From contig CAZSSJ010000002.1 in the NCBI GenBank assembly GCA_964609775.1, positions 19,260 to 83,259 on the forward strand: DNA of 64,000 bases, given 5' to 3'. The position numbers and the translations under genes are program-made. The notes beneath the pieces are model-generated. The model saw nothing but the letters and a program-made list of their open reading frames with translations. It was not told the origin of the DNA and ran no database searches. This document shows positions 1 to 39,972 of the stretch, in pieces. Source of the DNA: an uncultured Gammaproteobacteria bacterium (lineage in GTDB: Bacteria > Patescibacteriota > Microgenomatia > JAMCZE01). Numbering within the stretch: position 1 is the first letter of the stretch; the number at the start of each line of letters is the position of its first letter.

Positions 1-2
1 GG

Positions 3-395
3 GACGTTATCGAACATTTTACCGACCCGGTTTCGGAAATTACAAAAGTTTATCGCACCCTAAAAAAGGGCGGAGTTTTCGCTTTTTCCACCGTCGACCC
101 TGAGAGTCTAACGGCTAAAATTAGGGGGAGTAAGTGGCCCTGGTATATGGAAATGCACCGAGTCTTATTAAGCCGGCCGGTCATTGAACGCTATCTTCGA
201 CAGTCGGGATTTAAAACAGTCTTTTTTAGGTCACATTGGCGTTTTTTTTCGTTAGGTTATGCTGCCACCAGGTGGGAAACTATCAGTCCCACACTTGCTC
301 GAATTTTGACCAGCGCAGTTAAGATTATGCACCTACAGAAAGTCTTAGTGCCGTTTTATGCTAACGATCTCTACGACTGCTATGCGTTTAAGTAG
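3..395 (+). CDS. class I SAM-dependent methyltransferase, C-terminal fragment (N-terminus lies upstream of the window)
   Basis: Frame 3 is open from nt 3 to the stop at 395. The translation DVIEHFTDPVSEITKVYRTLKKGGVFAFSTV matches the VLEHxxDP post-motif-II segment of Methyltransf_11/23-type methyltransferases. Confidence 0.55.
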   Translation, partial: DVIEHFTDPVSEITKVYRTLKKGGVFAFSTVDPESLTAKIRGSKWPWYMEMHRVLLSRPVIERYLRQSGFKTVFFRSHWRFFSLGYAATRWETISPTLARILTSAVKIMHLQKVLVPFYANDLYDCYAFK

Positions 396-1947
396 CCACC
401 AGCCAAAGCCACTGTCTCTAATTATCCTGGTAACCGTTCTCCTTGCGGCCTTCTTCCTTCGCACCTGGCCGACTCTGAGTGACACCACCCATTTTTCCTT
501 TGATCAGGGCCTGGACATGATCATGGCCAAACTGTTGATCGTCGATCACCAGATCAACTTAATCAGTCGCCACAGTGGACTTCAGGGCGTCTTGATGGGC
601 CCCCTCTGGACTTATTTTCTGGCCACCCCTTTTGCCCTTTCAGGTGGTCACCCCTCCGGCAACGTCATCTTCCTGTCTGTTTTTAATCTGGTCACCTCTG
701 TTCTGGCAACTGTGCTGGTCGGCCGGAAATTCGGCTTGACTGCCGGAGTTGTTACCGGACTTTTTTTTCTGTTCTCACCCTCCTTCATCACCGGTTCTCA
801 AGTAGTCCTTAGTCCTTATCCTCTAATACCCTTATTTATTTTTTTCCCCCTACTTGCCCACGAAACCCTAGTTAACAAAAGCAGTCGTTTCGCCTGGCTT
901 CTCATGCTGCTCTTGGGACTATACTTTCAATTCGAAGTCGGCTTTGCCATTTTTGCCCTTCTCGCTTTTGTTGTCCTTTTTGTTTTTTTCCACTCGTGGT
1001 GGCTTTTTAAAAAGCGGTCATTCTGGGCAGGCTGTGGGCTTTTTGTCTTGACATTTTTGCCCCAGATCCTTTTTGACCTTCGCCACCAATTTCTGATAAC
1101 CAGCGGTTTGTTAGCCTACTTTACTGGCAGTAATACTAGTCTTTACCAGAAGTCAGCTCCACTCATCATTCGCCTCGCTCAGCGATTATATTCATTCTAT
1201 GAAGACGCGACCGCAATGGCATTTTTTGGCCATTGGTCGGTGAATATTGCTCTTCTTCTTCTGGTGGTTTCCGGCTGGATAGTCGCTCTAAAGCATGACG
1301 CAAAAACCCATCGGAAATTTTTGCAAATGATCCTTTTGACATTGGCGTCTTTTTTTATCGGTTTTACCCTTTATCCTGGTCCGATTTGGGGTTGGTATCG
1401 AATTGGCCTACCGGCAATCTACATCTTTCTTGTTTCCATACCAACTGGCGTCCTTTGGCAGAGAATGTATCGTCTTCGGCCGTTAATTCTGATCGTTCTA
1501 ATCGCACTATTTTTGACTGGCGTCAAACCCTGGACTCTCTGGCACCTATATAAAAATCCAGGTGTTGGCGGAGTGGGGACACTCAATAATCAAAAAAAAG
1601 TCATCGACTACGTTTATTCTCAGGCAGAGGGAAAGCCGTTCAACTATCTCGTCTATACCCCGCCGGTCTATGACTACATCTGGCAATATGACTTTTGGTG
1701 GTACGGAAGACAAAAATATGGCTATCTTCCGACAAATTGGCAAATGAGTGTGCCCCTATTGGGAATCGGGGAACAATCCAAACCTCCTGCCACCAAAGAA
1801 CCTTTCTTTCTCATTATTGAGCCAAATACCGACCACCCCGACGAATCCGTCAATTGGAAGAAGACTTTAAAACTAGAGCCAGCAGATTCAAAAGCTACTC
1901 TTCCCGGAGGAATTATCGTCGAAAGTCGGCAAGGCGACAATTTATGA
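382..1947 (+). CDS. polytopic membrane protein, GT-C-like putative glycosyltransferase (family unassigned)
   Basis: Long ORF with at least 10 hydrophobic helices and an acidic first-loop motif, FDQGLDM. A C-terminal soluble domain follows. Start is ATG 382 or ATG 358, both overlapping the upstream stop. The stop at 1947 overlaps the next start as ATGA. Confidence 0.5.
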   Translation: MRLSSHQPKPLSLIILVTVLLAAFFLRTWPTLSDTTHFSFDQGLDMIMAKLLIVDHQINLISRHSGLQGVLMGPLWTYFLATPFALSGGHPSGNVIFLSVFNLVTSVLATVLVGRKFGLTAGVVTGLFFLFSPSFITGSQVVLSPYPLIPLFIFFPLLAHETLVNKSSRFAWLLMLLLGLYFQFEVGFAIFALLAFVVLFVFFHSWWLFKKRSFWAGCGLFVLTFLPQILFDLRHQFLITSGLLAYFTGSNTSLYQKSAPLIIRLAQRLYSFYEDATAMAFFGHWSVNIALLLLVVSGWIVALKHDAKTHRKFLQMILLTLASFFIGFTLYPGPIWGWYRIGLPAIYIFLVSIPTGVLWQRMYRLRPLILIVLIALFLTGVKPWTLWHLYKNPGVGGVGTLNNQKKVIDYVYSQAEGKPFNYLVYTPPVYDYIWQYDFWWYGRQKYGYLPTNWQMSVPLLGIGEQSKPPATKEPFFLIIEPNTDHPDESVNWKKTLKLEPADSKATLPGGIIVESRQGDNL

Positions 1948-4010
1948 TCGGTGACTTCCTGCCACTGCAAACAAATCTTTTACCCTATTGGTTTTTTCCC
2001 TGGAACACTAATTCCTGGTCAGGCTTTACTCCCTTTATTTTCCACAAGGAACTATTAGCTATCGACGCTCTGCGCCAGATTTTTGTCTGGAAAGAATTTG
2101 CTTTTTCCCAAATCAGACTAGGTGGGTGGCCGCTCTGGAATCCCTACAGTTTTTCCGGTCAGCCGCTTTTGGCCAATTTCCAATCCTCGGTTTTCTATCC
2201 GTTGTCTTGGTTTTTTATGTTTCTGCCGCCCATGATTGCCTGGGCGGCTTATGTTTTTAGTCAGCCGCTCCTTTTAGTCACTTTTATGTTCTTCTGGATG
2301 CGACCAAAAGTGGGTGCCGTTGCCGCCCTTTTTGCCGCCCTCGCCCTTGCAACGGCCAGTTTTTTTGCCACCCGCTATTTCTGGGGAGTCTACGTTCATT
2401 CGCTGTTATGGATTCCTCTGGGGTTAGGCCTGATTGACCGCTACAAAGAAGCCAAAATCAAAACATCATCTTTCGTCGCCTCTTTTTCCCTGGTTTGTGT
2501 CTTAACGGTTCTGGGTGGTTATCCTCAGTTTGGCTTGTACGCCATTGCCCTTTTGGGAGCGTACTATTTGTATATTTTTGGCAAAAAGCGCCTGCTCCTC
2601 TTTCTCCTTTCCCTGATTTTGGCCTTGTTAATTTCCGCCGTCCAGTTAATCCCAACAGCCGAACTATACCGCTATTCGCTTCGTGAGGGAACTGCCTCAG
2701 CCCGGACCTTTAGCGATTCCCTCTTGTCTCCGAAATACCTTGCTACCATAGTTTACCCCGACATGTTTGGCAGTCCGGCAGTTAATGACTACACTGGAGG
2801 CAAAGACTACTCTGGTGTCAACGGCTATTTTGGCGTCGTCCCCTTTCTTCTGGCTTCGGGTGCTGCTATTTTCTTACGAAGGGACAGACAAGTTAGGTTT
2901 TGGATCGCCGTTGGAGCATTGGGGCTACTTCTTGCCTACGACAATCCTTTTGCTCGGCTACCTCAGGTGTTGCCCTTGCCCATCATAAGCAGCGGGAATG
3001 CGTGGCACAACCTTTTCTTTTTTCAGTTTGCCGGTGTCGTATTAGCCACAATTCTACTTACCAGGTTACCAAAGAGAGCCATTCTCATCTGTCTCCTGTT
3101 GACAACCTTCTTAGGCTTCTATTATTCACTGAAAGTGTCACCCTTCGGACAGACCAAATATTTTTATCCTCCCCACCCTCTTCTTTCTTGGCTAAGGCAA
3201 AATGCTGGCCTAGATCGGTTTTATGGTTATCGCAGTTCCCACTTTCTTTCTAATCTTTCCACCTACTATCGCATCTATAGTCCCGAGGGCTATGACAGTC
3301 TTTGGCCGTCTTGGTACGGAGAGTTACTTTCCTCCGCTGACAGAGGTAAAGTTCCTCCGGAAGTAAATCGGGCGGATGTCTCCGTGACTGATTGGGACAC
3401 TTCCTACCGGCGTAAATTGCTAAATCTTCTGGGGGTCAAATATTTTTTAGACAAATCTGATAAACCCGGCGGCGACCAAGGTCCAAACCTGGCCAAGTAC
3501 CCGGCCGGGCAATTTGTCTTAAGGAAACAATGGGGAGAAGTGTCCATCTATGAAAACAAAGAGGCCTTGCCGAGAGCTTTTTTGGCAGACGGCGTCATCT
3601 CTGCCCCAAAATCGGAAGTCATCGAGAAAATCTATTCTTTGCCCTCGCTTCGGACCATCATCTTGGATTCACCACCCGGCCTGGGGTCAAAAAAACTGAC
3701 CACCGGATCAGCGAGTATTAAAAAATATCTTCCCAATGAGGTAATCGTGACCACCAATTCCCCTGGTAATTCCCTCCTCTTTTTATCCGATACCTACTTC
3801 CCCGGTTGGGATGCTTTCGTAGACGGCCACAAAGCAAAAATCCTTCGGGCTGACTATGCCTTTCGGGCAGTCCCTGTTCCTCCCGGAAAAAATGAAGTAA
3901 GATTCATATATCAACCAAAATCATTTTTTCTTGGGATTTCTATGAGTTTATTAGGGAGCGCGATCTGGCTATGGCTGTTGTTAAAAAATTTTTTCAAGAA
4001 AACTGGCTAG
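1944..4010 (+). CDS. YfhO-family membrane protein (paralog 1 of 4), putative lipid-linked-glycan transferase
   Basis: N-terminal motif FPWNTNSWSGF...WPLWNPYSFSGQPLLANFQSSVFYP is typical of the YfhO family. The C-terminal module is LFLSDTYFPGWDAFVDGHKAKILRADYAFRAVPVPPGKNEVRFIYQP. ATGA overlap with the upstream gene. Confidence 0.8.
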   Translation: MIGDFLPLQTNLLPYWFFPWNTNSWSGFTPFIFHKELLAIDALRQIFVWKEFAFSQIRLGGWPLWNPYSFSGQPLLANFQSSVFYPLSWFFMFLPPMIAWAAYVFSQPLLLVTFMFFWMRPKVGAVAALFAALALATASFFATRYFWGVYVHSLLWIPLGLGLIDRYKEAKIKTSSFVASFSLVCVLTVLGGYPQFGLYAIALLGAYYLYIFGKKRLLLFLLSLILALLISAVQLIPTAELYRYSLREGTASARTFSDSLLSPKYLATIVYPDMFGSPAVNDYTGGKDYSGVNGYFGVVPFLLASGAAIFLRRDRQVRFWIAVGALGLLLAYDNPFARLPQVLPLPIISSGNAWHNLFFFQFAGVVLATILLTRLPKRAILICLLLTTFLGFYYSLKVSPFGQTKYFYPPHPLLSWLRQNAGLDRFYGYRSSHFLSNLSTYYRIYSPEGYDSLWPSWYGELLSSADRGKVPPEVNRADVSVTDWDTSYRRKLLNLLGVKYFLDKSDKPGGDQGPNLAKYPAGQFVLRKQWGEVSIYENKEALPRAFLADGVISAPKSEVIEKIYSLPSLRTIILDSPPGLGSKKLTTGSASIKKYLPNEVIVTTNSPGNSLLFLSDTYFPGWDAFVDGHKAKILRADYAFRAVPVPPGKNEVRFIYQPKSFFLGISMSLLGSAIWLWLLLKNFFKKTG

Positions 4011-6325
4011 TCATCTTTGCTCTGGGTGTCTCCAATCTTGTTTCTTTTTGGCAATTCTACCTTAAGGGTTTGTTACCCTTTCCCGGGGACCTTCTAGTTT
4101 CCTTTTTCTTTCCTTGGAACTCTGGAGGGTTTGTGGGCTTTGATTCCTGGACCACCCACAAGGAATACATCGCCTCCGACGCTCTCCGTGCCCTTTTCCC
4201 CTGGAAGGTCGAAGTCATCCGTCAATTCTTAAGCGGCAATTTTCCTTTGTGGAACCCCTTCAACTTTGCTGGTACACCGCTTCTGGCTGATTTCCAGTCC
4301 GGAGCCTTTTTTCCCACTAATCTTCTTTACGCCTTTCTGCCTCCTCTCACCGTCTGGATTCTCCAAGTGCTAGTTCTCTTGAGTCTGTTTGCCTTTTTTT
4401 CCTATCTGTTCCTGCGTGCCCTCAAACTCTCACCACTTGCCAGTGCTTTTGGAGCTGTTGTTTTGTCGAATTTACCCTATTTGGTCAACTGGCACGAGAT
4501 CCTCGTCGTGACGCAAAGTGCCCTCTTCTTGCCTCTGGATTTGTACCTACTTGAGAAATTTGCTCAAACAAAAAAAACTATTTATCTTTTTTTTCTGCCC
4601 CTTTTTTTGGCCTTCGCAATTTTTGCTGGCCATCCCCAGACAATCATTATGGTCTTCTTTCTCATCGGAAGTTATGCTCTTTTCCGCCGCTTGTCTTTGG
4701 GCAGAATTTTCCTAATTTTCGTAATCTCACTTCTTTTGGGTGCTGTCCAGTTGTTGCCGTCCTGGCAGTTTTATGAATTCTCGGCCCGGGAAGCAGGAGA
4801 CACGGCTAAACTTTTCCTTGACCACCTCTTCCCGTGGCGAAACGTAATAACCGCCCTAGCTCCGGATTTCTTTGGCAATCCGGTGACCGGAAACTTTTGG
4901 GGGTGGGATTATCACAACTCTCTTGCTTATATTGGTGTGACCGCTTTGTTCCTGGCCCTGTTTTCGTTCTTTTGGCAGTCCAGGAGAAGAGAGGTTGGCT
5001 TTTTTGCCCTGCTGGCACTTATTGGCTTGTTGCTGGCCACCTCTCCACTGGCCAACATTTTTCTCTTCTTTAAAATCCCGATTCTCTCCACCGGCATTGC
5101 CGCCAGGAATATTTTTTTCTGGCAGTTTTCTTTGGGAGTTCTCTCCGCTTTTGGTTTGGACTATCTCCTAAATAAGGTCCGACAAAGCAGGTCTCGGTGG
5201 CATTTTGCCCCCCTAATATTTCTTCTAGTTTTATATCTACTGCTTTGGGTTGTTGTCCTCACAAGCTCTTCCCCGGAGTTTCTTATAAGTCGCCATAATC
5301 TGATTCTCCCCACGGCCATCTTTATCCTGACAGCCATCCTGATTCTCGGCGTCATTGTCCAGCCAAAAATAGGAAAATATCTTCTCTTTGTGCTTTTAGC
5401 ATTGGCAATCTTTGAACAGGGGCGCTATTTTAATAAAATCGAACCCTTCGCTAGCCCCGCCTTTGTCTTTCCCGACCACCCGGTCCTGACTTTTTTGCAG
5501 GAAAATGCCGGAACCAACCGCTTTATCGGAGCAGGGACAGCCAAAATTGATAGCAACTTTGCCACCTACTACCGCATTTTTGACCCCCAGGGCTATGACC
5601 CACTCTATCTTCTTCGCTATGGCCAGCTGCTCGCGGCCTCAAAAAATGGCGGTAAAAAAGCGCCTGTCATCTCCCGGGCTGATGCGATGATCGCCAATTT
5701 GGACCGAAATGATGGCTTTAAAGACCGCTTACTCGATATTTTGGGAGTCAAATACGTCCTCGATAATGAAAATATGTCTGTCGCCAGAGACTGGGAACCG
5801 GGGACTCTTGAGACTGCAAACAACCGCCATCTGCTTGTTTGGCAGCAAGAGAACAAGTGGAAAATTTACGAGCGACAAACCGCCCTCCCCCGAACCTTTT
5901 TGGCCGGAAGCTATGAAGTTGCCTCCTCTGATGAGGCAATTTTGGCACGTCTCTTTGATCCAGACTTTGCTGCTCAAGACAAAATTATCTTGGAAAAAGA
6001 TCCCGGTTTTCCAATCACCAATCAAGGCTCTGCCGAGGCAGTAATCACTCATTATTCTCCCAATACCGTCACGATTCAGACCCGTTCCGACCACCCTCGG
6101 CTGCTTTTTCTTTCGGATAATTACTATCACGGTTGGCTAGCAACCCTTGACGGCCAAAAGGCGGAGATTTTTCGGGCTAACTACACTTTTCGCGCCGTTG
6201 CCGCCCCTTCCGGATCGCACGTGGTGGAATTTAGATATAGTCCGGAGTCATTTCGCCTTGGACTAGTTGTCAGCGTTCTGGGTTTGCTGCTATGGCTAAA
6301 ATTTTTGCGACCAACAAGAAGCTAA
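3971..6325 (+). CDS. YfhO-family membrane protein (paralog 2)
   Basis: Motif LLPFPGDLLVSFFFPWNSGGF...WNPFNFAGTPLLADFQSGAFFP and C-terminal YYHGWLATLDGQKAEIFRANYTFRAV. Overlaps the upstream gene by 40 nt. Confidence 0.8.
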   Translation: MAVVKKFFQENWLVIFALGVSNLVSFWQFYLKGLLPFPGDLLVSFFFPWNSGGFVGFDSWTTHKEYIASDALRALFPWKVEVIRQFLSGNFPLWNPFNFAGTPLLADFQSGAFFPTNLLYAFLPPLTVWILQVLVLLSLFAFFSYLFLRALKLSPLASAFGAVVLSNLPYLVNWHEILVVTQSALFLPLDLYLLEKFAQTKKTIYLFFLPLFLAFAIFAGHPQTIIMVFFLIGSYALFRRLSLGRIFLIFVISLLLGAVQLLPSWQFYEFSAREAGDTAKLFLDHLFPWRNVITALAPDFFGNPVTGNFWGWDYHNSLAYIGVTALFLALFSFFWQSRRREVGFFALLALIGLLLATSPLANIFLFFKIPILSTGIAARNIFFWQFSLGVLSAFGLDYLLNKVRQSRSRWHFAPLIFLLVLYLLLWVVVLTSSSPEFLISRHNLILPTAIFILTAILILGVIVQPKIGKYLLFVLLALAIFEQGRYFNKIEPFASPAFVFPDHPVLTFLQENAGTNRFIGAGTAKIDSNFATYYRIFDPQGYDPLYLLRYGQLLAASKNGGKKAPVISRADAMIANLDRNDGFKDRLLDILGVKYVLDNENMSVARDWEPGTLETANNRHLLVWQQENKWKIYERQTALPRTFLAGSYEVASSDEAILARLFDPDFAAQDKIILEKDPGFPITNQGSAEAVITHYSPNTVTIQTRSDHPRLLFLSDNYYHGWLATLDGQKAEIFRANYTFRAVAAPSGSHVVEFRYSPESFRLGLVVSVLGLLLWLKFLRPTRS

Positions 6326-8616
6326 TTCTGGTTTTCCTGTGCCTGTTAGCGGCCAATGTTGCAATTTTCTGGCAGTTCTATTTTCGTGGACTTTTGCCCT
6401 TTCCCGGCGATCTACTGGTGTCATTTTTCTTTCCCTGGAACTCTGGCGGCTTTGCCAATTTTGATCAGTGGACCACTCACAAAGAAGTCATCGCCGCCGA
6501 TGTCATTCGGCAAATGTATCCTTGGAAAGCCCTCCTAGTCAACGCCGTAAAGAACGGCACCTGGCCTCTGTGGAACCCCTACAATTTTTCTGGAACTCCG
6601 CTTCTGGCTAATCTTCAGTCATCCGTTTTCTTTCCGGCCAATGTTGTTTTTCTCTTTTTGCCCCGGCTTGTTTCCTGGATCAGTCTCGTCATTTTTCTCC
6701 CCCTCATTTTTTCCATTTTTTGCTATCTCTTTTTACGCTCTTTAAACATTAGCCGGCTCGCCAGTCTCCTCGGAGCAATCATCCTGTCAAATATTTCTTA
6801 TTTGCTCGTCTGGTCAGAGCAATTGGTCTTTATTCAAAGTGTTCTTTTCCTGCCACTCTCCCTGTTGCTAATTAATTATTATTCAGTTTCAAAAAAACCA
6901 CTTCTTCTCCTCCTTTTGCCCCTAACCTTATCTTTTGCCGTTTTTGGCGGTCACATCCAAACAGTTGTCTATGTTTGTGTTGTGGTAACTTTATATGCCC
7001 TTTTCCGCCGCCTGCCAATCAAATACCTTTTTATCATCGCTCTTTCGACCATAGGCCTGTCATCACTACAACTTCTTCCTTCTCTCGAACTGTATCTCTA
7101 TTCAGCTCGCGAGGGAAATGCCTCTGCCCAGTTGTTTCTTGAATCTGTCCTTCCGATCCAAAATCTCGCCACCATTCTTGCTCCGGATTTCTTCGGCAAC
7201 CCCGCCACCGGCAATTTTTTCGGCTCTGACTATGGCAATAATCAGGTCTATTTCGGAGTATTGGCAGCATTTTTTTCCGTCGTTGGACTTTATTACGGAC
7301 TGAAGGGAAAAAAGAGTTTGACGCTTTTTTTTGCTCTCGTTGGCCTAGGAGGTCTGGTGTTTTCTCTAGATCCTTTTGCTCGCTTGTTTCTTGTTTTTAA
7401 AATCCCGGTTCTTTCTTCAGCGGTCGCTGCCCGAGGAATTTTCATTTTTCAATTTTGTTTTGCCGTCGTGGCCGCTTTGGGAATTGATCAATTTCTGGCA
7501 AACACAAGGAAACGAGCAATAATTACTATTTTTTTCCTCTTTCTCGGCTTCTACCTGCTCCTATATTTTTCCACCAAGTTAATTCCCAATCACGCCACTA
7601 TTGCTCAAAAGAACCTAGTTCTGCCCTTGCTGGTCCTACTTTCCACTGGTGTGACCGCCTTTCTCTCCCGTTTTCGAAGGCAAGCAGCCGTTGTTCTCAT
7701 TCTAATTGCCACTTTGGAATATGCTTATTTTTTCAACAAATTTGCCCCCTTCGCCAGGAGAGAGTTTGTCTTTCCTGGGCATCCGGTTTTCAATTTTTTG
7801 ACGACGCGGGCGGAAGTTGACCGGTTTTACGGCTTCGGGACAGCCTATGTTGACAATAATTTTGCCTCCTACTACCGCGTCTTTTCCGCCGAGGGCTATG
7901 ACTCGCTATATATCAAGCGCTATGGTGAACTTCTCGCCTCCACCAAAAACGGCCAACTTCCCCCAGATGTTCCCCGTTCTGACGCCCTCTTTACAAGTCA
8001 AGACAACGTCTTCCGTAACCGGCTCTTTGATCTTTTAGGCGTCAAGTATATCCTTGATAAAAATGATAATCCCCAGTCAAATTGGGAACCGGAGAATGAC
8101 AAATTCCCCGAGGAGCGCTATAAGCTTGTCTGGCAGAAACTGAAATGGAAAGCCTATGAGAGAAAAACCGCCTTGCCTCGGGTATTTCTCGCCGATTCAT
8201 TCCTCGTTACCAATTCCGACCAGCTGATATTGTCAAAAATGTTTGACCCCCGATTCGATCTGGCAGCCACCGTGATCCTTGAAAAGAACCCCCCTTGGGA
8301 ACTTGCTCCGGGAGGGAAAAGTGAGGCAAAAATGAGCAACTACCGGGAAAACATGGTTGTCATTGAGACACAAGCTGACAAACCCAAAGCACTTTTCTTA
8401 TCAGATACCTACTACCCCGGTTGGAAAGCTACTCTTGATGGAAAACCAATAGATATCTATCGAGCCGATTATATTTTTAGATCCGTCATGGTTCCGTCTG
8501 GAAAACATACTGTCATTTTTAACTACGATCCTGAAACTTTTAAATTTGGGCTTGCCCTTTCAGGATTATCAGCCGCTCTTCTCTTGATAACCATCTTGCG
8601 AAAATCGCATCCATGA
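6292..8616 (+). CDS. YfhO-family membrane protein (paralog 3)
   Basis: The N-terminal 50 aa are almost identical to paralog 2: LLPFPGDLLVSFFFPWNSGGFANFDQWTTHKE. C-terminal YYPGWKATLDGKPIDIYRADYIFRSVMVPSGKHTV. Confidence 0.8.
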   Translation: MAKIFATNKKLILVFLCLLAANVAIFWQFYFRGLLPFPGDLLVSFFFPWNSGGFANFDQWTTHKEVIAADVIRQMYPWKALLVNAVKNGTWPLWNPYNFSGTPLLANLQSSVFFPANVVFLFLPRLVSWISLVIFLPLIFSIFCYLFLRSLNISRLASLLGAIILSNISYLLVWSEQLVFIQSVLFLPLSLLLINYYSVSKKPLLLLLLPLTLSFAVFGGHIQTVVYVCVVVTLYALFRRLPIKYLFIIALSTIGLSSLQLLPSLELYLYSAREGNASAQLFLESVLPIQNLATILAPDFFGNPATGNFFGSDYGNNQVYFGVLAAFFSVVGLYYGLKGKKSLTLFFALVGLGGLVFSLDPFARLFLVFKIPVLSSAVAARGIFIFQFCFAVVAALGIDQFLANTRKRAIITIFFLFLGFYLLLYFSTKLIPNHATIAQKNLVLPLLVLLSTGVTAFLSRFRRQAAVVLILIATLEYAYFFNKFAPFARREFVFPGHPVFNFLTTRAEVDRFYGFGTAYVDNNFASYYRVFSAEGYDSLYIKRYGELLASTKNGQLPPDVPRSDALFTSQDNVFRNRLFDLLGVKYILDKNDNPQSNWEPENDKFPEERYKLVWQKLKWKAYERKTALPRVFLADSFLVTNSDQLILSKMFDPRFDLAATVILEKNPPWELAPGGKSEAKMSNYRENMVVIETQADKPKALFLSDTYYPGWKATLDGKPIDIYRADYIFRSVMVPSGKHTVIFNYDPETFKFGLALSGLSAALLLITILRKSHP

Positions 8617-10103
8617 CCAAAAATACTTTCTTTTTTCTCATTATCCTCCTCCTCCTGCTCATCCCCATTGTCGTCCCTCTTGTCCAGCCCGGTTTCTTTG
8701 TCTCTGATGATGGCGACTGGATGGTTATCAGGCTATCCGCTTTCCACGAAACCCTCAAAACCGGCCAGTTCCCGGTTCGCTTTTTAGAAAGGCTCAATCA
8801 TGGCTACGGCTACCCGGTGACTGACTTTCTTTATCCTCTACCTTTCTATTTGGGAGAAATAATCCATCTCCTGGGCTTCAATTTTGTCGATTCAGTAAAA
8901 ATTCTTTTTGGCATGAGTTTTCTTCTCGGGGCTTTTTCCATGTTTTTCTACGCCAAAGATAAGTGGGGGAATCAGATAGGAATTATTGCTGCCGTTTTTT
9001 ACACTTATTTTCCCTACCGAATTTTTGACGTCTACAAACGTGGCTCGCTGGGAGAATCAGTCGCTTTTGTCTTTATCCCTCTGGTCTTTCTTTTTTATGA
9101 CCGCTTAGTCACCACCAAAAATCTAATATATCTTTCGTTTGGCGCTCTAGCCACAGCAGCCATGATAACCTCTCACAATACCGTTGCTTTTCTTACGTTA
9201 CTTGTCCTCATCGCATATATAACTACTAATCTTTTCTCAAAGACCGAAAAAAAATGGCTAATACTGTCCTCTATGTCTTATCTTGGTCTCTCTTTGACTC
9301 TTTCCGCCTTTTTTGTTATTCCGGCCCTTGTTGACCTCCAGTTCACTAAGACAAGGTTAATCACAATTTCTGATCCAACACGGTTCTTTCTTTCGTTAGA
9401 CAATCTTTTAAGTCTAGCCGGCATCCCAATAATGTTGATCACCGGTGCAGCCATACACCTAATTCGTAAGGGATCACGCGGGGTGGTATTTTGGACAGCT
9501 ATATCAATAGTCTCAATCCTGATGGCCATGTCCGTTTCTGATGTCCTTTGGGCAAATCTATCGTCACTTTCTAAACTAGTCCAATTTCCTTGGCGCTTTC
9601 TTTCGATTACGGCTCTAGCCGGAGCAATCTTAACCGGATTTTTGTTAAGCCACTACAGAATCAAGATATTATTCCCCCTCCTCATAATCTTGCCTGTCAT
9701 TTTCTCAGGAATATTGACACTAAAAATAGACAGAACTTTTCACCCAGAAAGCTATTACACTACCAACGACGACAGCACTACTGTCAAGAACGAATATATG
9801 CCCATTTGGGTAAAAAAAGACCCCACCAACCTTCCTAAGGAAAAAATTGCCTGGATAGACTCAAATCTTGTTCGAGTCAACACTGTATACTTCCCCGGTT
9901 GGGCAGCCTATGTCAATGGGCAAGAAAGGGAAATAATCTACCAGGACGATGGCCTAATCAAATTCGCTGCCCGACCAGACGACAAAATTGAACTTCGCTT
10001 TGAAGAAACTCCACTGCGGGCGGAAGCTAACCTTGTCACCATTTTGGGAATCTTCCTGGCCTTGGCTTTAATACTTTTGCCCCCCAAAAGTCAAATCACA
10101 TGA
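8613..10103 (+). CDS. YfhO-related polytopic membrane protein (H-D...H...R / GQFP-RW family, possibly PTPS-related type), paralog A
   Basis: Motif FVSDDGDWMVIRLSAFHETLKTGQFPVRF...GYGYPVTDFLYPLPFYLGE, with more than 10 TM helices. The C-terminal YFPGWAAYVNGQERE module is shared with YfhO proteins. ATGA overlap upstream. Confidence 0.6.
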   Translation: MTKNTFFFLIILLLLLIPIVVPLVQPGFFVSDDGDWMVIRLSAFHETLKTGQFPVRFLERLNHGYGYPVTDFLYPLPFYLGEIIHLLGFNFVDSVKILFGMSFLLGAFSMFFYAKDKWGNQIGIIAAVFYTYFPYRIFDVYKRGSLGESVAFVFIPLVFLFYDRLVTTKNLIYLSFGALATAAMITSHNTVAFLTLLVLIAYITTNLFSKTEKKWLILSSMSYLGLSLTLSAFFVIPALVDLQFTKTRLITISDPTRFFLSLDNLLSLAGIPIMLITGAAIHLIRKGSRGVVFWTAISIVSILMAMSVSDVLWANLSSLSKLVQFPWRFLSITALAGAILTGFLLSHYRIKILFPLLIILPVIFSGILTLKIDRTFHPESYYTTNDDSTTVKNEYMPIWVKKDPTNLPKEKIAWIDSNLVRVNTVYFPGWAAYVNGQEREIIYQDDGLIKFAARPDDKIELRFEETPLRAEANLVTILGIFLALALILLPPKSQIT

Positions 10104-11749
10104 CAGGGAAAATTGTCATGCTAATTCTTGCCTCAATCATTCTGCTAGGATTTCTTGTCCGCCTATACAGACTTGGCAATATTCCTAACGGCTTTTTCTT
10201 TGACGAAGCCACCATTTCCTACCAGGCATATAGTTTACTCCAGACGGGTAAAGATACCTGGGGAACTGACTTTCCTTTATTGTCATTTAGAGATTATGGA
10301 GAGTACATTTTGCCAATCGGCGTTTATGGTCAAATTCCTAGTCTATTAATTGGAGGGCTAAATGTCTTATCTGCTCGGTTTCCCCATGCTATTTTGGGAA
10401 TACTTAGTGTCCCATTAGTATATTTTTTAGCCAAAGAACTGTTTAAGAACACTAAAATTTCTCTTTTATCTTCATTTTTACTAACAATATCACCTCTTTC
10501 AATTGGTTGGACACGTTTTGTGTTCGAAGGTAATTTCGGGACAGTCCTTTTCTTGAGTGGGACACTTCTTTTCGCCAGGTCTTTAAAAAAGCCCCGACTT
10601 CTACCCTGGTCAATCCTTTCTTTTGGTCTGTCAGCCCTTTCCTATCACATATTTTTAATCCTCACTCCACTTTACTTTTGCCTGCTCTCTCTCCTGAATC
10701 GAAAATCCCCAAGTCTGATTGGACACATAAGACCCATAACTCTCATCATCGTTGTTTTCTTCCTCGCCTGGATCCTGGCTGCTATCGCCTCAGGCGCTGG
10801 TCGGCAGCGCTTTTCCCAAGCCTCAACTCTTCTTACACCTCAAAAAATTGACAACCTCAACCATCAAATTGGCTACTGTTCAAACCAAATGTCTCTCACC
10901 CTGTGCAAAGTATTTCTAAATAAGCCAGTCTTAGCAGCGACCAGCTACCTGGAAAACTACCTCGCCCACTTTTCGCCGGTCTTTTTAGGATTTGACGGGA
11001 CATTCCTTCGCCAAAATGTCTTGCCCAAGTCGGGAATACTTTTACCTGTGGAAATGGTCGGCTTTTTCGTGGGATTATTTTTTCTTGTCAGATCACCTAC
11101 TTCTTTAGCGAGCCGGATTTTATTACCGATAATCCTGATCTATCCCGTGGCTAATAGCTTCACTGGTCTGGGAGAAATCAGCCGGATTGCCTTTGCCAGC
11201 CCCTTTCTCTCGCTTGTCGCCGCCTATGGTTTGGTGCGAATCACCCAAACTTTCCGGGTGTTTAAGCCCCCGCTTTTTCTGGCTATTCTTTACAGCGTTG
11301 TCAGTTTCCTCATCACTTATTTTCTAATCTTCCCCAAAACTAACGCCTACTACACCAATTTTGGCTACGACAAAGTATTTTCTTGGGTGCGGGCCAATCA
11401 GTCTAAATATGACCGGATTTTTATCTCCCGCAACTATGCCGGTTCCGTTCCCTACATTTCTGCCCAATTTTTCCTGCCCATTGATCCGCAGATGTTTCAA
11501 AGGGGTCAAGTGGAGAGAAAAAAATCGCCTGAGGGTTATTATCAGATTGAATCCGTTGACCAGAAATTTCGATTTTTTCAAAATTTACACTCTGAAGCTC
11601 TTAAGCCAAATGATTTTGTTGTCGCCACCCCTGAGGACATTCAATCTTATGCGCTAACGCCGAAATTTACTATAATTGATCCCACGGGGAGAAAACTGCT
11701 CCTTGGCGTTGAAGCAAATGAAATTTTGGCAAAAACTGCTGTCCCTTAG
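10100..11749 (+). CDS. GT39 / PMT_2 / ArnT-like glycosyltransferase family membrane protein (paralog 1)
   Basis: N-terminal signature LRLYRLGNIPNGFFFDEATISYQAYSLLQTGKD matches the LRLYRL...P..L..DE...GYNAYS hallmark of the family. Polytopic. ATGA overlap upstream. Confidence 0.8.
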   Translation: MTGKIVMLILASIILLGFLVRLYRLGNIPNGFFFDEATISYQAYSLLQTGKDTWGTDFPLLSFRDYGEYILPIGVYGQIPSLLIGGLNVLSARFPHAILGILSVPLVYFLAKELFKNTKISLLSSFLLTISPLSIGWTRFVFEGNFGTVLFLSGTLLFARSLKKPRLLPWSILSFGLSALSYHIFLILTPLYFCLLSLLNRKSPSLIGHIRPITLIIVVFFLAWILAAIASGAGRQRFSQASTLLTPQKIDNLNHQIGYCSNQMSLTLCKVFLNKPVLAATSYLENYLAHFSPVFLGFDGTFLRQNVLPKSGILLPVEMVGFFVGLFFLVRSPTSLASRILLPIILIYPVANSFTGLGEISRIAFASPFLSLVAAYGLVRITQTFRVFKPPLFLAILYSVVSFLITYFLIFPKTNAYYTNFGYDKVFSWVRANQSKYDRIFISRNYAGSVPYISAQFFLPIDPQMFQRGQVERKKSPEGYYQIESVDQKFRFFQNLHSEALKPNDFVVATPEDIQSYALTPKFTIIDPTGRKLLLGVEANEILAKTAVP

Positions 11750-13454
11750 CCCTCTTGTTGTTCTCTTTATCGCCTCATTTTGGTCCTGGAAGCCGCTTCT
11801 GGCCTCCGGCTTTTTTACAATTCATGACAACCAGCAGATCGCCCGGCTGTTTGAATTAAATAAAGCTCTTCTTGCTGGTCAGTTTCCCGTTCGCTGGGTG
11901 CCGGATCTGGGTTTTAGCTTTGGCTACCCGCTCTTTAATTTCTATCCGCCCCTGATTTATTATCTCGGCGAACTCTTTCATCTGTTGCTCGGGACAGGAT
12001 TCATTGACTCAATTAAGATAGTTTGGTTCGTCGCCCTGGTGGGATCGGGGATTGCCATGTACTTCTTGGCGAAAGAGTACTTTGGCAGAGCAGGAGGACT
12101 CGTTGCCGCGATGTTTTATGTTTACGCTCCCTACCACGCCGTCGACGCCTACGTCCGCGGGTCTTTGGCCGAACTTTTTTCTTTTGTTTGGCTCCCCCTC
12201 ATCCTGCTGGCATTGTATAAAATTGTGACTTTGCCAATAAGCTACGATCGTTGGATTTTGGCAAGCGGTATTCTCCTTGGCCTGCTGATGATCACCCACA
12301 ACCTCATTTTTCTCCCTTTTGTGGGAATATCAGCCCTTTGGTATTTTGCTCTAGTATTAATTTATCGCCGTAACGAACCGGTCCGTTATACTTTATACTT
12401 TATACTTTATACAGCCCTTTGTTTCGCTCTATCAGCCTTTTTCTGGCTGCCGGCGCTGGCTGAAAAACAATTCACCCTCGTTGACCAACTCCTGATTAAG
12501 AATCTGGCTTCCTACCAAATCCATTTTGTCTGCCCGCAGCAGTTATGGAACAGTCCCTGGGGTTTTGGCGGTTCGACTGCAGGTTGTCTTGATGGCCTGT
12601 CATTCAAACTCGGCAAGCTGCACATCTTGGCAGCCATAGCCTCTTTCGGGGCTGTCGCCTACCTCTGGCTTAAAGCTCACAAAAAGCTAGCGTTAGTAAT
12701 TCTTATATCTTATTTCTTATTTTTTATATCCCTGTTCATGACTACTGACTATTCAAAAATTTTGTGGGACAATTTTCCCCCTCTTTGGTACCTTCAGTTC
12801 CCCTGGCGTTTTCTGGAATTTGCCACCCTTTTTGCCGCGCTAATTGCGGGGAGTATCTTGGCGTTGGTCAAAAATATCCCCCTTAAAATATTGGTTACCA
12901 TAACGCTAATTTCGGCAATTCTCTACATCGAAGCTAAAAACTTCGTTCCCCAAACCCACCTCTTCACTGACACAGACGACCAAGAAACTTCTGATGAGCA
13001 AATTAAGTGGGTCATCAGTTCAACTTCGTTTGAGTATCTCCCAAAAGAAGTTGCCACTAGAGTCACAGACCTCGGGACCGTTTGGGTCGATATTGATCGA
13101 TCAAAAATTCCCCCCCGAAAGTATCAAGTTCTCTCCGGAAACTTGCAAAGCACCGAGGAAATATTTCTTCCCCATCGTTTCAAACTCACTGGCCAATTTA
13201 CAAACGAGACGACAATTCAAATTAATGTGGCAAACTTTCCCGGGTGGGAAGTGTGGCTCGATGGTTCCGAAGCACGCATCAGGGATAACAATGCCTATAA
13301 ATTGATCACTATCAATGTCCCCCCAGGAAACCATACACTAACTGGGCAATTTACCAATACCTGGCCGAGGTCCCTAGGTAACACCATTTCCATCATTGCA
13401 CTCATCGCGTTAGCCCTTTACTTTGGAAAATATGGAATTAGAAGAAGTTCTTAA
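11718..13454 (+). CDS. YfhO-related polytopic membrane protein (H-D...H...R / GQFP-RW family), paralog B
   Basis: FTIHDNQQIARLFELNKALLAGQFPVRWVPDLGFSFGYPLFNFYPPLIYYLGE is the same motif as 8613..10103 and 37536..39206. C-terminal NFPGWEVWLDGSEARI. An alternative upstream start exists at 11676. Confidence 0.6.
   Translation: MKFWQKLLSLSPLVVLFIASFWSWKPLLASGFFTIHDNQQIARLFELNKALLAGQFPVRWVPDLGFSFGYPLFNFYPPLIYYLGELFHLLLGTGFIDSIKIVWFVALVGSGIAMYFLAKEYFGRAGGLVAAMFYVYAPYHAVDAYVRGSLAELFSFVWLPLILLALYKIVTLPISYDRWILASGILLGLLMITHNLIFLPFVGISALWYFALVLIYRRNEPVRYTLYFILYTALCFALSAFFWLPALAEKQFTLVDQLLIKNLASYQIHFVCPQQLWNSPWGFGGSTAGCLDGLSFKLGKLHILAAIASFGAVAYLWLKAHKKLALVILISYFLFFISLFMTTDYSKILWDNFPPLWYLQFPWRFLEFATLFAALIAGSILALVKNIPLKILVTITLISAILYIEAKNFVPQTHLFTDTDDQETSDEQIKWVISSTSFEYLPKEVATRVTDLGTVWVDIDRSKIPPRKYQVLSGNLQSTEEIFLPHRFKLTGQFTNETTIQINVANFPGWEVWLDGSEARIRDNNAYKLITINVPPGNHTLTGQFTNTWPRSLGNTISIIALIALALYFGKYGIRRSS
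12386..12412. repeat. 7-bp tandem repeat (ttatact) x3.9 inside a membrane-protein CDS
   Basis: Read directly: ttatact ttatact ttatact ttatac. Encodes RYTLYFILYT. Confidence 0.9.
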
Positions 13455-14877
13455 TCGGACCGTAAAAAGCGTCATCGCGCTGACGAGCCGCAGCGTTGTC
13501 TTGCTGCTGATTCAGGCCGTGGCTTATTCTCTTCTCATCGCTTTTCTGGGAGCCCAGGAGATCGGCATTTTTATTGTCGTCTCGGCAATTTTGCGCGTCT
13601 TCACTTTCTTTACCGATTTGGGATTGGGCGCCGCCCTCATCCAGAAAAAAGAAAATTTAGACCAGGATGACCTGCGCTCTGCCTTTACTATTCAAACCGC
13701 ACTGGTCCTCATAATTATCGCCGTTGCCTTTGCGCTCACCCCGCTTGTCAGATCCTATGCCAATTTGGACCCGGCCGGAGTTTTTCTTTACCAGGTTCTC
13801 GCCTTCACTTTGCTCATTTCTTCCTTAAAAATGATCCCCTCGATTCTTCTGGAGAGGCAGCTGCGCTTTGAAAAACAAATCATTCCCCAAATCGTCGAGG
13901 CATTGGTATTCAACAGCTTGGTGGTCATTCTGGCGGCCAAACATTTTGGTGTCGCCTCCTATTCATGGGCCATTCTAGTTTCCTCTCTCGCCGGATTGCC
14001 CGTCTACTACCTAATTTCGCCGTGGAGAATTTCCCTGGGATTGTCGAAAGATGTGGCCAAACACCTCATTCGCTATGGCCTCCCTTTCCAAGGCAAGAGT
14101 GTCCTGGCGATAATAAAAGATGATCTTCTGGTCTTCTTTCTTTCCGGAATTGTTGGCACCGCCGGAATTGGCTACTGGGGGACGGCGCAAAAATTTGCCT
14201 ATTATCCCTTCCGTCTGCTCGTCGACACTCTCACTAAAGTCACTTTTCCCGCTTATTCGCGAATTCAACTGGAAAAAGAAGCCTTAAGAATTGGTATAGA
14301 AAAATCGCTACTTGCCGTCAGCCTCCTGCTCTTTCCGGTGCTCACCTTAATCGCCGTGCTGGCCCACAATCTTGTTTATTTAATCCCCAAATATCAAAAG
14401 TGGGAGCCGTCACTGCCTTCTCTCTATTTCCTCTGTGCGGGGGCGGCCGTCTCTGCCTTGTCAAACATTTTGGTGAACGCCCTTGACGCTACCGGACACG
14501 TCAAAACAACTCTGGGGTTGATGGTAATGTGGATAGTATTAACCTGGGTTGGAACTTTGGTCCTCGTAGCCAAGTTTGGTTTTACCGGAATAGCTATGGC
14601 CTCGTTCGTGGTCGCTCTCACCATTATTCTTACCATCTACTTGGTTAAACGGGTTGTCAATTTTCGCTTTTTGGGAAGTATCTTCAAGCCATTTTTGGGT
14701 TCCCTACTTATGGGGCTTTCGGTGTTTGCCCTCATTCAAGTTCTGCCAATCTCCTTCCCGGCTCTTCTTCTTGAAGGTATTGCTGGTGCTATAATTTATT
14801 TGGGTGCGATGTATCTGCTCGCCCGCAAGGAACTATTAGCGGATCTGAGAATCGTCATCAAAACTTTCAGAAAATGA
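13423..14877 (+). CDS. Wzx-like oligosaccharide flippase (polysaccharide biosynthesis protein family, MOP superfamily)
   Basis: N-terminus NRTVKSVIALTSRSVVLLLIQAVAYSLLIAFLGAQEIGIF...LGLGAALIQ matches the Polysacc_synt family. About 12-14 TM helices. Confidence 0.75.
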   Translation: MENMELEEVLNRTVKSVIALTSRSVVLLLIQAVAYSLLIAFLGAQEIGIFIVVSAILRVFTFFTDLGLGAALIQKKENLDQDDLRSAFTIQTALVLIIIAVAFALTPLVRSYANLDPAGVFLYQVLAFTLLISSLKMIPSILLERQLRFEKQIIPQIVEALVFNSLVVILAAKHFGVASYSWAILVSSLAGLPVYYLISPWRISLGLSKDVAKHLIRYGLPFQGKSVLAIIKDDLLVFFLSGIVGTAGIGYWGTAQKFAYYPFRLLVDTLTKVTFPAYSRIQLEKEALRIGIEKSLLAVSLLLFPVLTLIAVLAHNLVYLIPKYQKWEPSLPSLYFLCAGAAVSALSNILVNALDATGHVKTTLGLMVMWIVLTWVGTLVLVAKFGFTGIAMASFVVALTIILTIYLVKRVVNFRFLGSIFKPFLGSLLMGLSVFALIQVLPISFPALLLEGIAGAIIYLGAMYLLARKELLADLRIVIKTFRK

Positions 14878-15767
14878 CAACAATTTCCTTCGCAATTGCG
14901 ACTCGTAATGAGGCTGATGACATTAAAGATTGCCTCGAATCGATCAAATGGGCTGATGAAATCGTCATTTTTGACGAAAAATCAATCGACAAAACGGTTG
15001 AGGTCGCCAAAAAATATACTTCTAAAATTTTCCTCATTGACCACGATCCGATGTTTCACCGCACTAAGCAAAAGGCAATCGATAAATGTGCCAGTGATTG
15101 GATTTTTCAAATTGACGCTGACGAAAGAGTCAGCCCCGACCTAAAAGATGAAATTCTCCAGACAATTAGTGGCGTCTCGTCGCTTCCCGGTTACCAACTC
15201 CCCCGCAAAAGCAGGATTTTTGGCAAATGGATGGAACACACCGGTTGGTACCCCGACTATCAGGTCAAGCTTTTCCAAAAGGGCAAGGGTCACTATCCCT
15301 GTCAGTCAGTTCACGAAATGATAACTATCGACGGTCAAATGGGAACTTTAACAAACGATCTTCTGCACGAACACTATTCCACTCTTGACTGGTATTTGAA
15401 TCGCCGGTTCGAATACACCAAAAACGACGCCGAAAACATCATCGCCCGCGGGGAAAAAATTGTTTGGTCAGATGCGATTAAATTCCCCGCCGACGAGTTC
15501 TTTAAACGATTTTTCTTTTGGCAAGGCTACAAAGACGGTCTGCATGGCTTAGTCCTCTCACTTTTGATGGCCTTTGACCGCTTAATCGTTTTTGCCCGCC
15601 TCTGGGAGCACCAAAAATTTTGGCAACATGACAGTGCTGATTTTCGAGGGGAAGTCATACACAAGACAAAAAAGGTGGCGCATGACTGGCACCATTGGCT
15701 GTCGCAAACTGCCACCAAACCCCACGAGAAAATCTTGCATAAGCTGAAAGCAAAATTTAATTTCTAA
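14874..15767 (+). CDS. family 2 glycosyltransferase, WaaE/KdtX-like (paralog 1 of 3)
   Basis: ATRNEADDIKDCLESIKWADEIVIFD...DWIFQIDADERVS. NE and DxD-type motifs. ATGA overlap upstream. Confidence 0.75.
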   Translation: MTTISFAIATRNEADDIKDCLESIKWADEIVIFDEKSIDKTVEVAKKYTSKIFLIDHDPMFHRTKQKAIDKCASDWIFQIDADERVSPDLKDEILQTISGVSSLPGYQLPRKSRIFGKWMEHTGWYPDYQVKLFQKGKGHYPCQSVHEMITIDGQMGTLTNDLLHEHYSTLDWYLNRRFEYTKNDAENIIARGEKIVWSDAIKFPADEFFKRFFFWQGYKDGLHGLVLSLLMAFDRLIVFARLWEHQKFWQHDSADFRGEVIHKTKKVAHDWHHWLSQTATKPHEKILHKLKAKFNF

Positions 15768-15770
15768 TCT

Positions 15771-19187: not shown

Positions 19188-19273
19188 TCATCATCTTCGA
19201 ATTTGCAACAGTTTTGATGATTAATACACATCGAAATGCGGTGAACGCATAATATTTACCTTATGATGGGTAT
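19188..19273 (+). promoter_or_regulatory. AT-rich 86-nt intergenic spacer, possible internal promoter
   Basis: One of the few non-coding gaps in the plus-strand array. It is AT-rich, with a CATAAT / TAATAT -10-like element roughly 20-30 nt upstream of ATG 19274. No clear -35. Confidence 0.2.
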
Positions 19274-24859: not shown

Positions 24860-24866
24860 GACACCC

Positions 24867-31252: not shown

Positions 31253-31257
31253 AAGTT

Positions 31258-35122: not shown

Positions 35123-35294
35123 AAGATGAATATAGCACCAAACCTACGCCATGGCGTTTTAATGATGATAACCGATTTTGTTAAACAATTAAAAGTTTTT
35201 AATCAAATCGGGGGAATTGAATTATTAAACTTCATGAATGCCTTTATGAATGTCATTTCCAAGCAGGTGAAATTCCAGAGCGTTCTGGAGAATT

Positions 35295-35316: not shown

Positions 35317-35325
35317 TCTTAATAT

Positions 35326-39971: not shown

Positions 39972-39972
39972 C

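Follow-up and report, generated by a model that had tools for sequence, protein, structure and literature searches.

The 64-kb stretch of DNA analysed here (the window), which derives from an uncultured groundwater Microgenomates (CPR) bacterium, encodes four anciently diverged paralogs of the YfhO family of GT-C glycosyltransferases, P1 to P4, which represent at least three orthologous groups and are organised in two separately conserved modules, P1-P2-P3 and GT4-P4-GT2. Family membership, fold, duplication age, selection pattern and synteny of the paralogs are reported below as observed, and the explanation that best accounts for them jointly, with a probability of roughly 0.8, is that the two modules of ancient YfhO paralogs would transfer lipid-linked sugars outside the membrane, and that the peptide block common to P2 and P3 is a conserved loop under purifying selection.

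The paralogs are located within a very large envelope-glycosylation gene array, which also contains an ABC exporter of the Wzm/Wzt type along with numerous GT4 and GT2 genes. The start codon of P1 overlaps the preceding stop codon (ATGA), P1 and P2 overlap by 40 nt, P2 and P3 by 34 nt, and the start of the GT2 gene at 22554 overlaps the stop of P4. The P2 protein is identical to GenBank entry UY21_C0001G0070. A promoter and terminator scan of positions 1..20000 was uninformative: its matches were all intragenic and no more than consensus-level.

Table 1. YfhO-family paralogs, the conserved block in P2 and P3, and associated genes, with positions in the window.
Feature	Position	Strand	Remarks
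P1, YfhO-family GT-C paralog, subfamily lacking TM helix 1	1944..4010	+	688 aa; Pfam YfhO 67.6 bits
P2, full-length YfhO-family GT-C glycosyltransferase	3971..6325	+	784 aa; Pfam YfhO 71 bits
P2 residues 26-65, conserved block opening the first extracytoplasmic loop, contains LLPFPGDLLVSFFFPWNSGGF	4046..4165	+	87% identity to P3
P3, full-length YfhO-family GT-C glycosyltransferase	6292..8616	+	774 aa; Pfam YfhO 95 bits
P3 residues 26-65, equivalent conserved loop block	6367..6486	+	mean column conservation 0.78 in top 30-aa window
Wzx-type (Polysacc_synt) multi-pass protein, candidate flippase	13423..14877	+	Pfam Polysacc_synt_3 160.7 bits
GT2 with hydrophobic C-terminal segment, PgfS / ArnC / CsbB kind	15771..16700	+	full-length alignment to NCBIfam PgfS
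GT4 glycosyltransferase, conserved upstream partner of P4-type YfhO genes	19274..20350	+	Pfam Glycos_transf_1
P4, YfhO-family paralog, separate clade	20347..22557	+	736 aa; Pfam YfhO 79 bits
Short GT2, AglJ / DPM1 kind, candidate polyprenyl-phosphate hexose synthase	22554..23237	+	Pfam GT2 115.6 bits
PpgS-like GT2, followed by DUF2304 protein	42104-43129

Family membership and the shared block of P2 and P3

The original prediction of four YfhO-family genes was confirmed, as all four ORFs exceeded the gathering score of 28.5 bits for the PF09586 YfhO profile (67.6-95 bits), and precomputed annotation likewise assigned their homologues to PF09586. The paralogs thus belong to an ordinary, known family, and they have the GT-C fold: AlphaFold (AF2) models were confident (pLDDT of 93.8 and 93.3, the latter for P1), and their structural matches were exclusively GT-C glycosyltransferases, including an EmbA-EmbB entry and AftD. 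A PDB sequence search with P3 gave nothing relevant (TEL2 only, E-value about 1), and no solved structure was found for the YfhO clade of P1-P4. On the basis of AF2 secondary structure and hydrophobicity, P3 would have 13 helices, with an outer domain at residues 485-747 (about 260 aa) in front of the last helix (748-772), and the layout of P2 is the same. Correspondingly, YfhO of Bacillus subtilis has about 13 TM helices, the last two of which flank a large extracytoplasmic domain (PMC5836110). Deviations from this layout are clade-wide, with helix 1 and helices 11-12 missing in P1, and the last helix missing in P4.

Near-identical N-termini had been claimed for the tandem paralogs, together with an almost identical 50-aa segment in P2 and P3. 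Such a block does exist in the latter pair, in which it is the window of top identity and far above chance for independent sites, but it is shorter than claimed: residues 33-54 are identical (22/22), as are 30 of the 33 residues at 33-65, and over the full 50 aa (residues 26-75) identity is 39/50, that is, 78% in comparison to 47% for the whole proteins. P1 and P4 share only 37% and 22% identity, respectively, with P3 in the block, and the claim is therefore true of P2 and P3 only.

The proposed cause was recent tandem duplication, or gene conversion by which P2 and P3 had become alike at their 5′-ends, and that no other protein segment of the pair is as similar as the block is what one would expect from such an event. 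However, the excess of similarity is limited to the protein level. The block DNA is just 74% identical between the two genes, compared with 72% in two other conserved blocks, third-position identity in the block (0.47-0.57) is not above that of residues 509-539, and the longest identical nucleotide run, 14 nt, is situated outside the block. Codon by codon, many synonymous differences were seen, and identical residues shared their codon at 14 of 28 positions within the block and at 136 of 323 outside it (Fisher p = 0.43). The Nei-Gojobori pS value was 0.74 for the block and 0.76 for the remaining gene, both saturated, when dN was 0.09 and 0.52, respectively. Due to saturation of dS in every paralog pair (pS 0.75-0.79), the dN/dS ratio was abandoned, and pS and dN are given separately. 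Since synonymous divergence in the block equals that of the remaining gene, recent copying between P2 and P3 is refuted. In addition, unrelated genomes carry this peptide too, as a 21-mer from the block was matched exactly by 8 homologues of other metagenomes, and with two mismatches at most by 31 foreign proteins, and orthologs are nearer to the paralogs than these are to each other (see below). Gene conversion is accordingly left with almost no credibility.

The block is instead kept constant by purifying selection. It directly follows helix 1, where the first extracytoplasmic loop begins, and no other 30-aa window is as conserved among 122 homologues. In GT-C enzymes, the first luminal loop carries an essential acidic motif (PMC6801728). 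Residue 40, within this loop, is Asp in 98 of the 122 homologues and Asn in the other 24, P1 having Asn, and D70 is found without exception in all 122, the four paralogs included; their position and conservation suggest that D40 or D70 may have a catalytic role. The first extracytoplasmic loop is hereby marked as the putative functional core of this YfhO clade, with signatures that are clade-specific and distinct for the P2/P3, P1 and P4 types. More generally, when paralogs side by side share a near-identical peptide, this can reflect a conserved catalytic loop and need not signal gene conversion; comparison of synonymous sites settles which of the two applies.

The variable regions of the paralogs had also been expected to map to outer, acceptor-binding loops, which the comparison of P2 and P3 did not support. 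The two proteins differ most in their transmembrane helices, with an identity of 36%, compared with 50% for the outer domain at the C-terminus and 58% for the extracytoplasmic loops.

Orthologous groups and conserved modules

The duplications are old. Identity to positional orthologs was 51% for P1 (L1a), 52% for P2 (L1b) and 55% for P3 (L1c), compared with 37-47% among P1-P3 within the genome, and over 30 foreign proteins were nearer to P3 than P2 is. Orthologs of P2 were 49-72% identical to it. The gene order P1-P2-P3 was found again in assembly GCA_027371575.1, and pairs of a P1-type gene followed by a full-length gene recur in three further loci (L082, L083 and L084). In the neighbour-joining tree, P1 and its ortholog were grouped with 100% bootstrap support, P2 and its orthologs with 78%, and the P4 clade with 100%. 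The P3 orthogroup received weak support (26-28%), and orthology of P3 therefore relies on synteny and identity ranking. Downstream of the tandem genes, the order of the Wzx-type gene at 13423 is conserved in L001, L002 and L083, and the GT2 gene at 15771 has kept its relative position in L001.

P1 represents a distinct type within the family. Its alignment with P3 starts at residue 31 and has a gap over P3 residues 404-457; in this genome, a further stretch of about 68 aa, equivalent to P3 helices 11-12, is missing from P1. Intact orthologs (n = 15, 38-71% identity) all begin at one motif, and in 15/15 intact members of the group, helix 1 is missing and the first loop Asp is replaced by Asn. 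An N-terminal miscall or frameshift was rejected as the upstream in-frame sequence is hydrophilic, and stop codons are located 0-7 codons upstream in four other loci. Likewise, a pseudogene was rejected on the basis of the 15 intact orthologs with the same start and the confident AF2 model.

Due to the missing helix 1 and the Asn at the first loop acid, P1 may not be catalytic. It might then act as a specialised or non-catalytic partner, in a hetero-oligomer with the downstream full-length YfhO protein, as in EmbA-EmbB or Pmt1-Pmt2. Besides the uniform loss in the 15 intact members, this would suit the gene arrangement, as in 5/5 inspected loci the gene immediately behind the P1-type gene is of the full-length P2/P3 type, and the two overlap by about 40-50 nt. 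However, P1 has kept D70 along with the majority of the other invariant residues, Asn40 is also present in 23/118 full-length homologues outside the window and therefore need not inactivate the enzyme, and locus L002 carries P2 and P3 without any P1-type gene, which together make the partner role possible but rather doubtful.

A bolder proposal, which we regard as more tentative still, is that the P1 type constitutes a previously undescribed YfhO/GT-C subfamily that has lost TM helix 1 and the first loop Asp and is an obligate hetero-oligomer with the downstream full-length paralog. On a larger scale, the 14-21 GT-C genes of the array might then form an extracytoplasmic assembly line, on which CPR bacteria would build a complex glycan of the envelope, using lipid-phosphate monosaccharides, in the manner of mycobacterial arabinogalactan. 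The helix-1-less P1 subfamily offers a concrete test case for GT-C function without helix 1 or as paired subunits.

The second module is centred on P4, which belongs to a 15-member clade (100% bootstrap) with the first-loop signature LPIPxDTxVGLYHPWRD...PFKNFxITDxVRQQ. Members of this clade all terminate right after the beta domain and have no C-terminal helix. An ortholog of the GT4 gene is located immediately upstream of the P4-type gene in 12/13 loci, and an ortholog of the GT2 gene at 22554 about 1-3 kb downstream in 6/13 loci. The top NCBIfam match of this GT2 protein was AglJ, below the cut-off.

Putative glycosyl transfer and comparison with known systems

In the preferred reading of two ancient YfhO modules, a sugar would first be attached to polyprenyl phosphate by the cytoplasmic GT2 enzymes that the locus encodes. 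The lipid-linked sugar would then be flipped across the membrane, at whose outer face each YfhO paralog would pass the sugar to an extracytoplasmic acceptor, either the acceptor or the linkage being different for each paralog. The predicted multiplicity of glycan decorations is plausible to this extent, as several diverged copies may well correspond to several distinct glycosyl transfers.

Genes that may encode the polyprenyl-phosphate GT2 component of the three-component system were found at 22554, overlapping P4, at 15771, and at 42104 (PpgS-like). The GT2 at 15771, which lies in the gene string of P3, 7 kb further downstream, matched the NCBIfam PgfS model over its full length with 249 bits (cut-off 500) and ArnC with 151 bits, and is a candidate for making the lipid-linked sugar donor of the P1-P3 group. 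A small flippase of the GtrA family was not found among the scanned ORFs of the window, in which the only flippase candidate was the Wzx-type Polysacc_synt protein at 13423; Wzx-type flippases are an accepted alternative (PMC8035078). Precedents for such gene combinations are the operons csbB-yfhO and pgfS-pgfM1-pgfM2 (PMC5836110, PMC12041528).

For the acceptor, teichoic acid had been proposed, and the characterised YfhO proteins of Bacillus, Staphylococcus and Listeria indeed glycosylate LTA or WTA (PMC5836110, PMC8035078). Other YfhO members, however, O-glycosylate proteins (PMC12041528), and the only NCBIfam models matched by the paralogs were PgfM1 and PgfM2. Nothing in the window speaks for teichoic acids, as the TagB/F, LtaS, TagO and LCP families were absent from Pfam scans of the 64 kb, and the host is a CPR bacterium. 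To our knowledge, no teichoic acid has been reported from CPR bacteria. Decoration of teichoic acids by P1-P4 is consequently improbable.

[quoted passage not shown] Against this, the matches of the paralogs to PgfM1 and PgfM2 (NF047589, NF047590) reached 19.5-41.6 bits, far under the equivalog cut-offs of 1400 and 1500 bits, and covered only the C-terminal ~70 residues, and the PgfS match was likewise about half of its cut-off. No candidate acceptor protein was identified within the window, and the Wzm/Wzt exporter and numerous GT4 and GT2 genes are typical of polysaccharide assembly. We consider protein O-glycosylation rather unlikely.

Microgenomates hence carry conserved multi-copy YfhO modules within very large GT-C gene arrays, which point to an elaborate surface glycan. 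We know of no chemical analysis of the envelopes of these organisms, and a literature search on GT-C, YfhO and glycosyltransferases in CPR, Microgenomates and Patescibacteria retrieved no paper on these arrays.

Among known systems, the CsbB/YfhO system of B. subtilis, S. aureus and Listeria (PF09586) shares with P1-P4 the Pfam family, the GT-C fold, the layout of 13 helices with a large outer domain before the last helix (PMC5836110), and linkage to genes for GT2 polyprenyl-phosphate glycosyltransferases. In contrast, the genes described here are from a CPR host and present in four copies, in a window without teichoic-acid context and without a GtrA-type flippase, P1 and P4 deviate by the loss of helix 1 and of the last helix, respectively, and the outer domain is about 260 aa instead of the 389 aa in B. 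subtilis. The Streptococcus mutans Pgf operon (PgfS, PgfM1, PgfM2) is similar in encoding several YfhO paralogs together with a PgfS-type GT2, and its three proteins were the best NCBIfam matches, but scores here were far below the equivalog cut-offs, and neither epimerase nor adhesin genes adjoin the paralogs. The mycobacterial embCAB genes belong to another GT-C family with no sequence similarity to P1-P3, and encode larger proteins with carbohydrate-binding modules, and the likeness to them is best taken as one of organisation only, not of membership: embCAB comprises three tandem GT-C paralogs, 40-46% identical (PMC7341804) when P1-P3 are 37-47% identical, which use lipid-phosphate sugar donors, act on different acceptors and form heterodimers, as P1-P3 might.

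The YfhO genes and their array

The predicted three tandem YfhO-family genes (P1, P2, P3) and fourth copy (P4) were present as ORFs, each scoring 67.6–95 bits in the profile search against Pfam PF09586 (YfhO; gathering score 28.5). In pairwise protein alignments P2 and P3 were 47% identical, while P1 was 37–38% identical to either of them and P4 32–34% identical to the other three. Proteins identical to P3, P2 and P1 are found in GenBank as UY21_C0001G0069, UY21_C0001G0070 and UY21_C0001G0071, respectively, from Microgenomates group bacterium GW2011_GWA1_48_10, where they are annotated as hypothetical proteins. This places the window in a CPR (Patescibacteria) genome, in the orientation opposite to that of the deposited 140-kb contig. 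In related genomes such genes already bear the YfhO label, and the four add new members to a known family.

Features of the window and P1-type genes of related loci
Feature	Position	Strand	Remarks
P1	1944..4010	+	overlaps P2; P1-type
P2	3971..6325	+	overlaps P1 and P3
P3	6292..8616	+	overlaps P2
PTPS_related-type and 592-aa proteins	11676..13454, 8613..10103, 37536..39206		YfhO-outer-domain-like C-terminal motif
Wzx-type protein	13423	+	Pfam match
GT2	15771..16700	+	full-length alignment to PgfS (249 bits) and ArnC (151 bits), both sub-cut-off
GT4	19274..20350	+	ortholog directly upstream of P4-type gene in 12/13 loci
P4	20347..22557	+	separate from the tandem
Short GT2, AglJ-like	22554..23237	+	ortholog ca. 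1–3 kb downstream of P4-type gene in 6/13 loci
PaaX central/Cas2-like domain	34475..35122	-	215 aa, 62.8 bits
PpgS-like GT2	42104..42784	+	147 bits
PpgS-like GT2 and DUF2304 pair	42104..43129		DUF2304 75.7 bits
Enolase superfamily (MR_MLE)	48342..49349		amid glycosyltransferase genes
Wzm/Wzt-type ABC exporter region	56472..60258		Wzt C-terminal domain 24.1 bits (cut-off 30.4)
PIG-L type de-N-acetylase	60277..60915
P1-type gene, L001	5521..7752
P1-type gene, L082	10001..12067
P1-type gene, L083	10001..12214
P1-type gene, L084	10001..12232

All ORFs of at least 200 aa between 358 and 63015 were on the plus strand but one, and many overlapped their neighbours. The first 47.6 kb (358..47593) contained 14 genes over the Pfam threshold for families of the membrane glycosyltransferase fold GT-C, i.e. 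four YfhO, six PMT_2, two PTPS_related, one GT87 and one PIG-V, together with three sub-threshold PMT_2 matches and four polytopic membrane proteins without family match (starting at 11676, 16645, 36082 and 45235). Similar GT-C-dense, one-strand arrays were identified in the related loci L001 and L082–L084, and no paper describing arrays of this kind was found in the literature. The sole minus-strand gene within the array, encoding the PaaX/Cas2-like protein, which could be a regulator, divides it into two blocks. The terminal motif of the PTPS_related-type and 592-aa proteins (e.g. NVANFPGWEVWLDG vs YYPGWKATLDG in P3) suggests a C-terminal beta domain common to GT-C families of the array.

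Three GT2 proteins (at 15771, 22554 and 42104) are candidate lipid-phosphate sugar synthases on sequence grounds. The third is directly followed by a small DUF2304 membrane protein, a pair which we take to resemble GacI/GacJ and Rv3631/Rv3632, whose small member enhances the activity of the lipid-phosphate sugar synthase. GT4, P4-type YfhO and short GT2 (19274..23237) make up a conserved module, seen in loci of both Levy- and Gottesmanbacteria. The P4-clade proteins have a loop-1 signature of their own, and all stop right after the beta domain, without the last helix.

Besides many GT4 genes, the 3′ half of the window contains a Wzm/Wzt ABC exporter, methyltransferases and an acyltransferase. 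The exporter, whose ATPase carries the sub-threshold Wzt domain match, is followed by a methyltransferase and a 241-aa protein without family match, a layout like that of chain-end-capped, ABC-dependent polysaccharide export. The enolase-superfamily gene is unusual in a glycan cluster.

Origin of the conserved P2/P3 block

The near-identity of the P2/P3 block, which opens the first extracytoplasmic loop (loop 1), is real at the protein level, with 22/22 identical residues at 33–54 (GLLPFPGDLLVSFFFPWNSGGF) and 30/33 at 33–65. The original prediction of 50 almost identical residues was too strong, as only 39/50 were identical at 26–75, and near-identical N-termini were not common to the paralogs, the block being absent from P1 and P4 (37% and 22% identity to P3 in this region).

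Recent tandem duplication or gene conversion, which the same prediction had drawn from this similarity, was ruled out at the DNA level. Nei-Gojobori pS between P2 and P3 was saturated both within the block (0.74) and across the remaining gene (0.76), and different codons were used for 13 of the 22 identical residues. The codon was the same for 14/28 identical residues of the block and for 136/323 in the remainder (Fisher p = 0.43), when a fraction of 0.375 is expected from codon usage alone. The longest identical nucleotide run, 14 nt, was outside the block, whose DNA was 74% identical compared with 72% in two other conserved blocks (repeat finder). The exact 21-mer LLPFPGDLLVSFFFPWNSGGF was present in eight homologues from other metagenomes, and in 31 with at most two mismatches. 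Inside the block dN was 0.09, against 0.52 elsewhere, and no other 30-aa window of the protein was as conserved (mean conservation 0.78, 122 homologues). These values mark the block as a family signature maintained by purifying selection.

More than 30 proteins of other assemblies were nearer to P3 (51–56% identity) than P2 is (47%), and at least seven further foreign proteins were clearly P2-like (49–72%). In L001 (GCA_027371575.1) the gene order was that of the window (PMT_2, three YfhO, two PTPS_related, Wzx, GT2, GT2, unknown, GT2, GT4), and the closest match of each paralog was its positional counterpart (P1 51%, P2 52%, P3 55%). The NJ tree grouped P1 with its ortholog (bootstrap 100%) and P2 with two orthologs (78%), placed P4 in a different 15-member clade (100%), and gave no resolved P3 group.

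Relatives occurred at no fewer than 578 places in GTDB genomes, and every lineage-named record among these was Microgenomates-type (Levy-, Gottesman-, Chisholm- or Curtissbacteria). At least two YfhO genes within 10 kb either side were found in 40 of 82 loci, and multi-copy YfhO is thus normal in this lineage. Many MAG records with CPR-type loci (L005–L079) are titled “uncultured Gammaproteobacteria” or “Pseudomonadales”, names that seem to be placeholders or taxonomic errors.

Topology and the P1 subfamily

On the basis of AlphaFold model helices, hydrophobicity and flanking positive charges, P3 is predicted to have 13 helices with an intracellular N-terminus, a long loop 1 (residues 26–114), and a mainly beta-strand outer domain (485–747) before a final helix (748–772), the same layout as that described for YfhO of B. 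subtilis (PMC5836110). Loop 1 begins with the block, and the essential acidic motif of GT-C enzymes lies in the first extracytoplasmic loop shortly after helix 1 (PMC6801728). Candidate catalytic residues are D70, invariant in 122/122 homologues, and D40, a position at which 98 of them have Asp and 24 have Asn.

The outer loops had been expected to be the variable parts, and the opposite was seen: P2–P3 identity was 58% in extracytoplasmic loops and 50% in the outer domain, falling to 39% for the loops on the cytoplasmic side and 36% for the transmembrane helices, with helices 11–13 the least conserved (20–31%). The amphipathic loop-1 helix 66–90, only 32% identical, is therefore a candidate specificity element.

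P1 belongs to a distinct, conserved YfhO subfamily. It begins at the loop-1 motif, without helix 1, and lacks ca. 68 residues matching P3 helices 11–12. The search with P1 returned 17 proteins set clearly apart from the rest, with scores dropping from 565 to 424 bits after them. Since 15 of these share the start M-x(1-5)-[IL]PL[PQH]TN..P.W.FPWNT, and in-frame stops lie 0–7 codons upstream of it in four other loci, the absence of helix 1 is real and conserved. In all P1-type proteins Asn replaces D40, whereas the D70 equivalent is retained, and the P1 model without helix 1 was confident (pLDDT 93.3). The N-terminal loop of ca. 85 residues would have to reach the outer face without helix 1.

In 5/5 loci examined, two with a pair and three with a triple, the P1-type gene was followed by a full-length P2/P3-type gene with an overlap of ca. 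40–50 nt, which suggests a paired or hetero-oligomeric function. In L002, P2 and P3 were present and a P1-type gene was absent. This helix-1-less subfamily with its full-length partner, and the GT-C gene density, most deserve further study.

Comparison with known systems

The GT2 enzymes of the locus would make polyprenyl-phosphate sugars, which the YfhO paralogs may use as outer-face transferases, on the model of CsbB/YfhO and of PgfS/PgfM1/PgfM2 (PMC5836110, PMC8035078, PMC12041528). The predicted function, transfer of carrier-bound sugars onto teichoic acids, is right in generic terms only. No teichoic-acid genes were found in the 64-kb window. YfhO members that O-glycosylate Ser/Thr-rich regions of proteins are also known, and PgfM1 is not redundant with PgfM2 (PMC12041528). 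The closest parallels to the pairing of P1 are EmbA-EmbB, encoded in the same operon as EmbC with 40–46% identity (PMC7341804), and Pmt1-Pmt2.
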